DNA of 64,000 nucleotides from a virus, in IMG/VR virus record IMGVR_UViG_3300044701_001468, one strand, 5' to 3'. Positions 7,211 through 12,314 of this stretch are shown here, in pieces. Under the pieces are notes generated by a model, which was not told the origin of the DNA, ran no database searches, and worked only from the letters and a program-made list of their open reading frames with translations. The position numbers were made by a program, and so were the translations under genes. How positions within the stretch are numbered: position 1 is the first letter of the stretch; every line of letters starts with the position of its first letter.

Positions 7211-7351
7211 TCAGTCCAGCGAGGCGATCTGTGCCACCTTCTCTGCTGTCACAGCGTCAAGGGTCTGGGCAGTCTGCAGGATGGCGCCAGCGGTCTGAGA
7301 GAACATCAGCAGCAGAGCAGCAGCGAGGGCGAGGCGAAGGGTGTTTGCCAT
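7211..7351 (-). CDS. Small early protein with signal or TM segment (46 aa)
   Basis: MANTLRLALAAALLLMFSQTAG...; 3' part of track ORF 7211..7411. Confidence 0.6.
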   Translation of the reverse strand: MANTLRLALAAALLLMFSQTAGAILQTAQTLDAVTAEKVAQIASLD

Positions 7352-10030: not shown

Positions 10031-10117
10031 AAGATTCTGAGGTTTCTGAGAATTTTAAGTTTTCAAGGTTTCTGAGAATTCAAAGTTTGTTAAAATTCTC
10101 AGAAACCTCAGAATCTT
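10031..10117. repeat. Perfect 28-bp inverted repeat with a 31-nt spacer
   Basis: aagattctgaggtttctgagaattttaa (10031-10058) and its exact reverse complement (10090-10117). Confidence 0.95.
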
Positions 10118-10431
10118 CAGTTCAGGCGCATTCCAGAAAAGAAAGGAATTGCACCGCCTTCCTGACTCACAAACCACTCAAATTTCTTCTGAAACACACG
10201 CTCACCAGGGATACCATGCTCACAGAGAATAGCATTCAGGCGAGACTTGGTGGTGTTAGATTGCCAACCACCATCAAAAAGAGTAACAAAGCACTCGCCA
10301 ATCTCAGCGATTTTGTTACCATGCAGGAAGACTTCGCTCACACCATCATTGGTGACAACTTTGGTGTTATCTTTCTGCCAATCTTTGCCGTTGGTGATAG
10401 CGGCGTTCATTTGGCGTTCGATGAGGCGCAT
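10117..10431 (-). CDS. Conserved-type early hypothetical protein
   Basis: MRLIERQMNAAI...VFLHGNKIAEIGE...TTKSRLNAIL; TTGACT-17-CATACT promoter at about 10455-10483. Confidence 0.75.
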   Translation of the reverse strand: MRLIERQMNAAITNGKDWQKDNTKVVTNDGVSEVFLHGNKIAEIGECFVTLFDGGWQSNTTKSRLNAILCEHGIPGERVFQKKFEWFVSQEGGAIPFFSGMRLN

Positions 10432-10539
10432 GGGTCGTTTGCTGTTGACTTGGTTAGTATGGAGCCGATCAGGGCAAAAGTCAACCCCCCTAACCATCAC
10501 CTTTGCTTATGGGTTCGATCAGGGGGGCTTATCGTTGAG

Positions 10540-10603
10540 TTTTCCACAGGGTTGTGGAAAACTATTGAAAGTTTTCCACAGGTTTTAGTATATCTGTGGA
10601 AAA
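10540..10603. promoter_or_regulatory. Four alternating DnaA-box-like 9-mers (TTTTCCACA)
   Basis: Exact copies at 10540 (+), 10553 (-), 10572 (+) and 10595 (-) in an intergenic gap. Confidence 0.7.
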
Positions 10604-10611
10604 CTATTTAC

Positions 10612-10776
10612 TTACCATTCAATATTATCTCCATCAAACTTAATTCTTTTCTGCTTCTTAGGAGTGCGTCCGAGATTCTTAATCTTAACGCCATACGTAT
10701 TCTCTACTACTTGTTCATCAAACTCGTCGAAATCTTGATAGAAATCGTTTTTGTTGGAGTTCTTACTACGTGCCAT
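10612..10776 (-). CDS. Small hypothetical protein (54 aa)
   Basis: Read manually: MARSKNSNKNDFYQDFDEFDEQVVENTYGVKIKNLGRTPKKQKRIKFDGDNIEW. Confidence 0.65.
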   Translation of the reverse strand: MARSKNSNKNDFYQDFDEFDEQVVENTYGVKIKNLGRTPKKQKRIKFDGDNIEW

Positions 10777-10873
10777 TTGTTTGTTCTAAGGTGTCTACAA
10801 TCGTCTGTAAGGGATATTGACAACCAAATTGGTGCAATCACCCCTTGACAAACATATTTATTGTGTGCTAGGG

Positions 10874-11119
10874 TCAGTCAACCAGCAGTTTCAGAGTGCC
10901 TTCGTTGACACTCTGGTTGATGAATCGACCCACCGAGATATCCTCAGAGTCGAATTCAGCAAGCAACTGACTATCAAATCCGACAGCATCTTCAGTGCTG
11001 TAAGTATAAGATTTGTCGGAATTGCTATTATACTGAATAGAAACCGTGTTCTTTTCAGTATCAATAACAATGTTTTTGATAGCAGAACTAGGAACTTCTT
11101 GGTAGTTTTTAACAGACAT
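10874..11119 (-). CDS. KTSC-domain-like protein
   Basis: SSAIKNI.ID....VSIQY.....YTY...........S.GRFIN matches the KTSC pattern. Confidence 0.55.
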   Translation of the reverse strand: MSVKNYQEVPSSAIKNIVIDTEKNTVSIQYNSNSDKSYTYSTEDAVGFDSQLLAEFDSEDISVGRFINQSVNEGTLKLLVD

Positions 11120-11180
11120 TCGATTGATTTGATCGATTACTTAGTAATAATACTATGGTCTTCTGAGTTTGTCAAGGGTT

Positions 11181-11390
11181 TTTTGATTAGTTTAACTTAT
11201 ATAACAATAGTATTATATTATAATATGTTATTATAATTATAATGTTTCTCAAAATTCTCAGAAATCTCAAAAACTTAAAAAACTTAAATATTAAGATTTC
11301 TAAAAAACTCGAAAACCCTTGGAAATACAGAATTCTCGGTTTTGACGCTTTTGAGATTTCCGAGATTTTTGAAATTTCTGAGATTTTTGG
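11181..11390. repeat. AT-rich tract plus imperfect inverted repeat built from 9-nt units
   Basis: 11181-11243 has 6 G/C in 63 nt. Arms 11249-11272 and 11349-11372 match at 22/24. Four tandem GAGATTTYY-like units at 11353-11388. Confidence 0.85.
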
Positions 11391-11564
11391 GTTTCCACAC
11401 AAAGCTTGACAACTCGTTAGGTCGCGTGCTAAGACTACAACAACTCAGAGCATTTCGTAGCATATACGAAGGTTTCTGAGTTCATTATACTATTTCTACA
11501 CACTATAACACTATCGTTATACATCACCAAACTATATTTAATTAAACCTTTCTTAATCTAATAG

Positions 11565-11585
11565 TTTTCCACAGGTTTTTCCACA
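11565..11585 (+). promoter_or_regulatory. Two tandem DnaA-box-like 9-mers
   Basis: TTTTCCACA at 11565-11573 and 11577-11585; one-mismatch copy at 11391-11399. Confidence 0.65.
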
Positions 11586-11612: not shown

Positions 11613-12314
11613 TCAATAAAACGTAGACTGTAACTTAAATGTTTCATTCCGCAACCTTTGTATATCACTCAGACTATACTCTTCATCTACTACTACATTA
11701 TACTCTAATGATCGTTTCATTGGTATGATTTGCATCATTGGTGTACCCACTGGTATAAGAGTAACACCATCAAGTACATGCCAAAAGAATTGTACATTAA
11801 GAGATGATGATTCTTGAGGATCAAGGATACCAGTTGTATGAGTAAACCTCACTTCATTATTATAGTGTACATGAGTAATAAGAAATACAATATCTTTAGG
11901 TGCTTGTACTCTCCATCCAAAATCAAATTTAAATATGGATGATAATGATGAGTGAGGTGTTGAGTGATATTGAGAAAATAATTCTGGTGGATGTAGGGAG
12001 AATTGTATAGGAGAATCTGTTGCTGCTATATTAACGATTGGCGACTGATGATTAGAGTCAGTGACGACACGAATATCTGTAGGTGTAGGTAATATCCATC
12101 CTGTATTCATCATTGAGCGAATACCAGGGCACTTAGCAATATTACCTATACGTTGAGTGAATGGGCATTTTTTAGTATGAAGATCTTTTGTCAGTTGTTT
12201 ATACTGCTGATGTGGTTGTTGTAACCAAGATCTTTGAATTGATTGTGCTGATACGATTGGATAGTTTGCTGCGACACCATCAATGATATTATAGAATCGA
12301 ATATTACGTTTCAT
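11613..12314 (-). CDS. Hypothetical protein, possibly DUF6065-like/cupin-type fold
   Basis: KCPGIRSMMNTGWILPTPTDI...GILD...INVQF.W...IPVGTPMMQIIP is a pattern seen in phage proteins; family call from memory. Confidence 0.45.
   Translation of the reverse strand: MKRNIRFYNIIDGVAANYPIVSAQSIQRSWLQQPHQQYKQLTKDLHTKKCPFTQRIGNIAKCPGIRSMMNTGWILPTPTDIRVVTDSNHQSPIVNIAATDSPIQFSLHPPELFSQYHSTPHSSLSSIFKFDFGWRVQAPKDIVFLITHVHYNNEVRFTHTTGILDPQESSSLNVQFFWHVLDGVTLIPVGTPMMQIIPMKRSLEYNVVVDEEYSLSDIQRLRNETFKLQSTFY

Follow-up and report, generated by a model that had tools for sequence, protein, structure and literature searches.

The 64,000 nucleotide (nt) stretch of DNA analyzed here (called the window below), from IMG/VR virus record IMGVR_UViG_3300044701_001468, contains an array of six exact copies of the 9-mer TTTTCCACA, which is the DnaA box of the cyanobacterial phylum (PMC4009838, PMC4674748). 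The copies lie in two non-coding clusters, one of which follows an "orphan" promoter that has no open reading frame (ORF) downstream of it, and the combination of promoter, leader and boxes recurs in many related phages. Judged from their sequence and context the boxes are probably bound by DnaA, and the reading that we favor, at about even confidence, is that the array is a set of docking sites for host DnaA with an accessory role at an origin primed by transcription or at a control region. The window corresponds to positions 711–64710, read on the reverse strand, of a 103.7-kb virus contig in IMG/VR with a completeness of 54%, and the contig is a freshwater-type Kyanoviridae fragment, that is, part of a T4-like cyanophage. 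In the literature searched we found no paper on DnaA boxes in cyanophages and none on T4-type phages in which a conserved array of such boxes is coupled to an orphan promoter. DnaA boxes are known on plasmids, on phage lambda-type replicons and at chromosomal regulatory loci; to our knowledge T4-type phages do not use the host initiator, and we know of no mapped replication origin in a T4-like cyanophage.

The DnaA-box array and the orphan promoter cassette

A pattern search of the window finds exact TTTTCCACA at 10540(+), 10553(−), 10572(+), 10595(−), 11565(+), 11577(+) and 29341(−). A first-pass annotation of this DNA had placed six of these in two non-coding gaps, with the same coordinates and orientations, had noted the seventh in coding DNA (it is inside a 2OG-Fe(II) oxygenase gene) and had named the word as the cyanobacterial DnaA box, all of which holds, the last by the published consensus (above). 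Its rough figure of one chance copy per 64 kb is also close: dinucleotide-preserving shuffles of the window (n = 100) give an expectation of 1.25 and a maximum of 4, and none of the 100 reaches the observed 7. A genome-wide count, which the annotation had proposed as a check, gives eight copies in the whole 103.7-kb contig versus none of the reversed control word, so the word is enriched, and a Poisson estimate of the chance of at least six copies in 1046 bp is ~1e-13. The longer context that several copies were said to share is an AATAG prefix, present in three of them. The one-mismatch copy reported at 11391 is real (GTTTCCACA); over the window as a whole 34 such copies were found where 30 are expected, which is no enrichment of the class.

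In cluster 1, whose four boxes form two head-to-head pairs, each pair folds into a hairpin when taken as single-stranded DNA (−10.8 and −11.3 kcal/mol, z about −6); the tandem layout of cluster 2 cannot form one. Both clusters are non-coding, and the real genes there are on the − strand. A long frame runs across cluster 1 on the + strand, but relatives do not keep it, and a coding explanation for that cluster was rejected on this ground.

Conservation at the syntenic locus, a second proposed check, was measured in an unbiased set of 80 IMG/VR loci (383 kb) picked solely by homology to the neighboring gene gp96 (62–90% identity), from 592 relatives found in IMG/VR. These loci contain 135 exact copies of TTTTCCACA versus two of the control word. 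At least one copy is present in 35 of the 80, often as two clusters 0.4–1 kb apart, and with near-duplicates removed TTTTCCACA is the top 9-mer of the box-positive loci. Cluster 1 is letter-for-letter identical in three close relatives. The layout of cluster 2 shifts among close relatives (tandem pair, inverted pair or three boxes) with the 9-mer always retained, and relative L182 has four tandem boxes at this place. A six-way alignment shows invariant boxes separated by spacers that differ or are flipped. The flipped inter-box segments, which occur in both orientations among close relatives (window 10549–10594 versus L008, L124 and L135), are the N4 spacer, ACCC or GGGT, and the inter-pair spacer, CTTTCAATAG or CTATTGAAAG; they imply inversion by recombination between inverted copies of the box.

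Among 17 cyanophage isolates, S-PM2, P-SSM7, Syn9, S-SM1, S-SM2 and Syn19 have a pair or cluster of boxes at one locus, and no TTWTCCACA cluster is present in T4, RB69, KVP40 or the Pelagibacter myophage HTVC008M. When IMG/VR loci are instead collected by the presence of a head-to-head TTTTCCACA pair, 83 of 120 are cyanomyovirus-like (they share proteins with the contig) and the spacer lengths peak at 4 and at 14–15; the one-base variant TTTTCTACA, used as a control, gives a flat spacer distribution, 6 cyanomyovirus-like loci of 108 and no promoter association. Seven GC-rich (56–60%) contigs that are not cyanomyovirus-like (L044, L046, L056, L073, L083, L095 and L096) have head-to-head TTTTCCACA pairs with an 18-bp spacer adjoining a terminator-like GC hairpin, and DnaA-box pairs may thus occur in other phage groups as well.

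Cluster 2 stands at the end of the leader of the orphan promoter, which points against all neighboring genes. Alignment of relatives shows that the conserved stretch of this promoter is longer than its two hexamers and takes in the spacer and the first bases of the transcript. Its −35 element is TTGACA and its −10 is extended, and it shows no MotA-type −30 box. The same cassette, consisting of the promoter, an AT-rich, poorly conserved non-coding leader and boxes, is present in S-PM2, P-SSM7, Syn9 and many metagenomic relatives; 21 leaders range from 36 to 149 nt from the estimated start, and the longest distance from promoter core to box is 163 nt. A profile of the promoter finds 19 matching loci in the unbiased set of 80, with the promoter opposed to gp96 in every case, and boxes are present in 18 of these 19 versus 17 of the 61 loci that lack the promoter (Fisher p = 2e-7). 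Phage S-B43 keeps the promoter and a T-rich leader and has no boxes, so the boxes are an add-on to the cassette. They are an optional accessory more generally, since the promoter cassette can occur without boxes and roughly half of the related phages have none. The cassette matches no Rfam family, and the 21 leaders, which are too variable, gave no shared fold; a structured-RNA reading was rejected for these reasons.

RefSeq annotation of the S-PM2 genome (NC_006820, ~18.5–19.3 kb, our locus L121 4653–5480) puts several tRNAs over or beside its cassette, with tRNA-Asn and tRNA-Leu across the boxes. ARAGORN finds no tRNA in 4300–5600 of L121, and the RefSeq tRNA annotations look misplaced.

A possible transcription-primed origin

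How might boxes at the end of an orphan transcript be used? Under the favored reading the events would be as follows: early in infection host RNA polymerase would fire the orphan promoter; its short AT-rich transcript would open the DNA or form an R-loop, as at T4 oriF/oriG or ColE1-type origins; and DnaA on the boxes would then stabilize the opening, stall the transcript or recruit helicase. A head-to-head pair in the displaced single strand could fold into a hairpin with a duplex DnaA box, and DnaA bound there could help load the helicase. That the cassette has a role at an origin is possible, on the doubtful side of even. The fullest version, an origin or origin switch of T4-like cyanophages that is gated by the host initiator, in which the orphan promoter opens the DNA and DnaA licenses fork assembly, is more tentative still and in its entirety rather unlikely. 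If it were true, phage replication would be tied to the cell-cycle and diel DnaA state of the host, and the T4 superfamily would have its first host-initiator-dependent origin, and these viruses, which are abundant in oceans and lakes, their first mapped one. The cassette is in any case a concrete, single-copy candidate locus that is present in the existing isolates S-PM2, Syn9 and P-SSM7.

Parts of this scheme have precedents. The T4 origins oriF/oriG and oriE (PMC3016281) share with the cassette a T4-type genome, a promoter for host RNA polymerase and a site of transcriptional divergence; the easily melted DNA that follows the T4 promoters has a possible counterpart in the AT-rich leader, and oriE, with its iterons, also has repeats nearby. 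They differ in that the T4 promoters are MotA-dependent middle promoters that involve no host initiator, whereas the cassette, known here from its sequence, has a sigma-70-type orphan promoter with an extended −10 and DnaA boxes downstream. The two clusters 0.4–1 kb apart, which bracket genes, repeats and AT-rich DNA, resemble bipartite or plasmid origins such as oriC of B. subtilis and H. pylori and oriR of P1; unlike these, the phage locus has no Rep or initiator gene, and its 9-bp repeats have no known binder. In E. coli a single-stranded hairpin with a duplex DnaA-box stem, the A-site of the ABC-primosome, nucleates primosome assembly (PMC6127211), and the hairpins of cluster 1 (of cluster 1 only) could likewise present a DnaA-box stem during infection. 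ColE1/pBR322-type origins (PMC6127211) also have boxes downstream of a primer-type transcript. In contrast to both of these systems, the phage encodes its own helicase and loader, and cluster 2 is tandem and has no hairpin.

The first-pass annotation had called the locus oriC-like, and this label is not supported. The array resembles cyanobacterial oriC (PMC4009838, PMC4674748, PMC8287927) in using the same TTTTCCACA with the same flank preferences, in perfect boxes that are clustered in non-coding DNA and in being near AT-rich DNA. It differs from oriC in being on a lytic phage and not beside dnaN or dnaA, in having no DnaA-trios or skew switch, and in its layout, which is mostly head-to-head (N4 and N14–15) or tandem at 12 bp, where oriC boxes are tandem at 9, 11 or 21 bp. 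The cyanobacterial chromosomal arrays in our own sample are tandem at 11 or 21 bp, a comparison that is biased because this set was chosen by tandem triples. Exact head-to-head pairs with 3–15 bp spacers are present in only 3 of 401 cyanobacterial genomes, fewer than for a reversed control pattern, and the array was therefore rejected as a copy of a host oriC layout. The published basal unwinding rule consists of one or more boxes, a spacer of at most 16 bp and at least three DnaA-trios that lead into AT-rich DNA (PMC8287927), and the unwinding module of S. elongatus has two abutting boxes, GCCC and CTA repeats. A basal unwinding system of this published form is absent from the six phage boxes.

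Several findings weigh against the favored reading. Runs of DnaA-trios are no longer than three at any of the six boxes and no longer than two at the tandem pair, and a run of three or more arises by chance in 39% of cases. The tandem pair is oriented away from AT-rich DNA. Cumulative GC skew, which the annotation had proposed to compute, has no extremum at the locus and is therefore uninformative. The 90% AT tract that the annotation had noted between the clusters is real in composition and position; it is, however, upstream of two divergent promoters and brings no oriC geometry to the boxes, and it is not unique in the contig, where about three other places equal it as the 60-bp maximum of AT content. 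It is the 70% AT leader that follows the orphan promoter, while the 90% AT tract lies upstream of it. The array is also dispensable, in that it is absent from 45 of the 80 related loci and from 11 of the 17 isolates (S-T4, S-B43, P-SSM2, P-SSM4, P-HM1, P-HM2, P-RSM4, S-RSM4, S-SSM7, S-CRM01 and S-SKS1). Two further points of this kind concern the binder and are given below.

The rival that survives best, which we consider unlikely, keeps DnaA as the binder and gives it no part in replication: bound boxes would be a roadblock or insulator, and early expression would follow the DnaA level of the host. The orphan transcript would be stopped before it runs antisense into the 233-amino acid (aa) gene beyond cluster 2, and the leftward two-gene unit would be closed before the gp96 promoter. 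The geometry suits this, as both clusters are exactly at the downstream ends of two divergent transcription units (below), the boxes are 36–163 nt past the orphan promoter in many phages and the first box has the same orientation, facing the promoter, in 14 of 18 distinct cassettes. Schaefer and Messer reportedly found that DnaA/box complexes block RNA polymerase in E. coli, and bacterial head-to-head pairs beside dnaA (below) sit where autoregulatory sites are expected. On the other hand, a simple terminator would suffice without a host protein, S-B43 has the promoter cassette without boxes, and a roadblock leaves the orphan transcript itself without a function. Docking sites that are accessory to a promoter-primed origin or control region remain the reading that we prefer.

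Candidate binders of the boxes

Four properties of the boxes fit DnaA as their binder. First, the flanks of 106 distinct phage copies have A at −2, G or T at −1 and G or A at +9, with nearly no C at +9 or A at −1, and 108 copies from cyanobacterial chromosomal arrays (the set chosen by tandem triples, so that this comparison is biased also for flanks) have the same preferences. Second, one-mismatch variants in relatives are 18 times denser within 80 bp of exact boxes; they vary at positions 1, 7, 3 and 5 and never at 4, 6 or 9, and T1 to G is the commonest change. The tolerated positions agree with the relaxed E. coli consensus. Third, the phage boxes are arranged in tandem at 12 or 21 bp, head-to-head at 13, 23 or 24 bp and tail-to-tail at 19 bp, and such freedom of spacing and orientation is what would be expected of a protein that, like DnaA, recognizes each 9-mer as a monomer. 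Fourth, head-to-head N14–15 pairs are also found in many unrelated bacteria, where 6 of the 10 sampled are beside dnaA or the origin-proximal genes parB and yidC. If DnaA does bind, the array would directly couple, at the molecular level, phage development in picocyanobacteria to the cell-cycle state of the host, which has a bearing on models of viral lysis in lakes and oceans.

The box words of the hosts themselves are less simple. The regions upstream of dnaN in two AT-rich genomes (27–31% GC; L449 and L450) have 7–8 copies of TTTTCTACA and no TTTTCCACA, and at oriC AT-rich picocyanobacteria thus appear to have a DnaA box in which C6 of the phylum's word is replaced by T; the same regions in two GC-rich cyanobacterial genomes have 3–5 near-consensus boxes. 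None of these four small genomes has a genome-wide excess of exact TTTTCCACA. Phage arrays do not follow the host variant: no TTTTCTACA array was found in six Prochlorococcus phages or in IMG/VR, and P-SSM7, the sole box-positive phage among those six, uses TTTTCCACA. The idea that the box variant tracks that of the host was therefore rejected. This failure of co-variation is neutral to mildly negative for DnaA, since any DnaA should find its best site in the consensus word.

A different binder, that is, an early regulator of the phage or some other host factor for which the 9-mer is the operator and its identity to the DnaA box is coincidence or mimicry, is fairly improbable. Besides the lack of host co-variation, it would be in keeping with the phage layout being unlike host oriC and with an array that is present in only part of the family, as expected of an accessory regulator and operator pair. 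No match to the DnaA DNA-binding domain (Bac_DnaA_C) was found in the contig, which is 54% complete, and a phage-borne DnaA-like binder was rejected within that limit; the completeness also means that a phage-encoded binder could lie in the absent half, which counts against DnaA. The neighboring small proteins were rejected as binders, as p54 and p81 are absent from most box-positive loci (Table 1) and p81 and p58 are acidic. The 9-mer is, moreover, invariant across marine and freshwater genera whose gp96 proteins are 62–90% identical, whereas a co-evolving pair of phage regulator and operator would be expected to drift; the free spacing and orientation speak against a dimeric regulator, and both the flanks and the tolerated variants match those of DnaA boxes. 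Should DnaA not bind, the boxes of the cassette would remain a strongly conserved operator of some other binder.

If DnaA is the binder, the boxes could in principle act by number rather than by position, as a datA-like sink that multiplies with the phage copies, titrates DnaA and shuts off host initiation, a function that the annotation had proposed beside a DnaA-assisted origin and that we consider improbable. Clusters of boxes outside oriC that regulate DnaA are known (datA and the B. subtilis box clusters), and like these the array consists of high-affinity boxes away from the host origin that could titrate or modulate DnaA; unlike these, which are chromosomal, it is linked to an orphan promoter and would increase in copy number together with the phage genome. 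The host numbers make a sink conceivable: small GC-rich cyanobacterial genomes are very poor in perfect boxes (1 exact copy in 2.9 Mb and 7 in 2.7 Mb), and their dnaN-upstream regions have near-consensus ones only, so that one phage genome with 6–8 perfect boxes rivals a whole chromosome, and replication would multiply the number. A sink, however, could work without any fixed tie to an orphan promoter, and the association observed is very strong; there are 2–8 boxes per phage genome, many relatives have none, and T4-like cyanophages already degrade or outcompete host DNA.

The last alternative, that there is no protein partner and the boxes are RNA or DNA hairpins that serve as bidirectional terminators or recombination cassettes and are kept alike by gene conversion, is very improbable: it has in its favor the stable folds of cluster 1, a terminator scan that flags both of its pairs, the flipped spacers between inverted boxes in relatives, which indicate recombination between copies, and the many other stem-loop and promoter cassettes of the region, but hairpins are impossible for tandem or single copies (cluster 2 and the four tandem boxes of L182), no T-run follows the N4 pair, and a stem would tolerate compensatory change, yet here it is one invariant word across genera while the neighboring TGTGCCACT-type stem-loops do vary. 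An intrinsic terminator or promoter-early stem-loop was rejected on similar grounds, namely stems that are AT-rich and sequence-invariant, the existence of tandem copies and a weak T-run.

The surrounding locus

The features of the locus are collected in Table 1. The leftward sigma-70-type promoter is followed by the two small ORFs and cluster 1, and then by the C6/G6 stem-loop and the gp96 promoter; upstream of the leftward promoter are the AT tract, the inverted 9-bp repeat arrays and finally the orphan promoter on the + strand. The locus is thus a local point of transcriptional divergence, and this layout puts the two clusters at the far ends of two divergent transcription units, where they bracket an early control unit of ~1 kb. 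These repeats, of GAGATTT type, also precede the promoter in S-PM2 and in close relatives and are among the top 9-mers of the box-positive loci.

Table 1. Features of the DnaA-box locus (window coordinates)
Feature	Position	Strand	Remarks
Cluster 1: four exact boxes in two head-to-head pairs	10540..10603	.	Pairs 10540/10553 (spacer 4 bp) and 10572/10595 (spacer 14 bp)
Cluster 2: two exact boxes in tandem	11565..11585	+	12 bp start to start; at end of orphan-promoter leader
One-mismatch box GTTTCCACA	11391..11399	+	7 bp upstream of orphan-promoter −35 element; not kept in closest relatives
Orphan promoter	11406..11435	+	TTGACA (11406–11411), 18-nt conserved spacer, extended −10 TGcTAAGAC (11427–11435); from sequence and alignment
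Non-coding leader, 70% AT, 128 nt	11437..11564	+	Between orphan promoter and cluster 2; hairpin at ~11443–11483
AT tract, 90% AT	11181..11243	.	Between two divergent promoters
Two 9-bp repeat arrays, mutually inverted	11246..11389	.	TTCTCAAAA / AAAAACTTA at 11246–11288; TGAGATTTC at 11349–11389
Sigma-70-type promoter TTGACA-17-TATTAT	11147..11175	−	Score 11/12; predicted to drive two small genes toward cluster 1; kept in L008 and L011
Small acidic ORF, 81 aa (p81; phrog_4357)	10874..11119	−	In 11/35 box-positive loci
Small ORF, 54 aa (p54), no family match	10612..10776	−	Ends 9 bp before cluster 1; in 6/35 box-positive loci
C6/G6 stem-loop, then Kyano_Gp96 promoter	10456..10527	−	Stem-loop 10485–10527; promoter TTGACT-17-CATACT (10484..10456); conserved; repeated ahead of inserted genes in relatives
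Kyano_Gp96-family gene (gp96; PF23790)	10117..10431	−	E = 1e-43; anchor for unbiased comparison
233-aa gene (phrog_7084)	11613..12314	−	Convergent with orphan transcript; its 3' end comes after cluster 2

By DNA similarity the nearest isolates are the Synechococcus phages S-PM2, S-T4 and S-B43, and the closest metagenomic relatives of the contig are from lake-type samples. A gp6-like baseplate gene, a Dam-type methylase and a UvsW-like helicase are within 7 kb of the array, and these genes, the Kyano_Gp96 neighbor and the nearest isolates together place the locus in the small-early-gene block of a T4-like cyanophage.

This block is modular in other respects. In L124, L127 and L135 the box cluster and gp96 are separated by an inserted extra small gene, and this gene has its own copy of the G-run stem-loop and the TTGAC...CCATACT promoter, which indicates modular gene shuffling. 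A second + strand promoter-like element, TTGACA-N15-TGcTAGGGT, is present in window 10817–10873 between the two small − strand ORFs and is kept in L008 and L011; RNA from it would be antisense to the 81-aa ORF. Directly past the gp96 stop codon, window 10032–10118 contains a ~29-bp near-perfect hairpin (RNA fold −43 kcal/mol, z = −10) made of TCTGAG/GAGAAT-type repeats, which gives spurious microRNA-family matches in Rfam. Lastly, a second recurrent palindrome of the type TGTGCCACT-N6-7-AGTGGCACA occurs at window positions 7229, 8579, 9145 and 9608 and also in L125, L128 and L155, in box-positive and box-negative relatives alike. These palindromes, whose arms are variable, are directly upstream of early-type TTGACA promoters between small genes, and they resemble the promoter-early stem-loop cassettes of T4-type phages.

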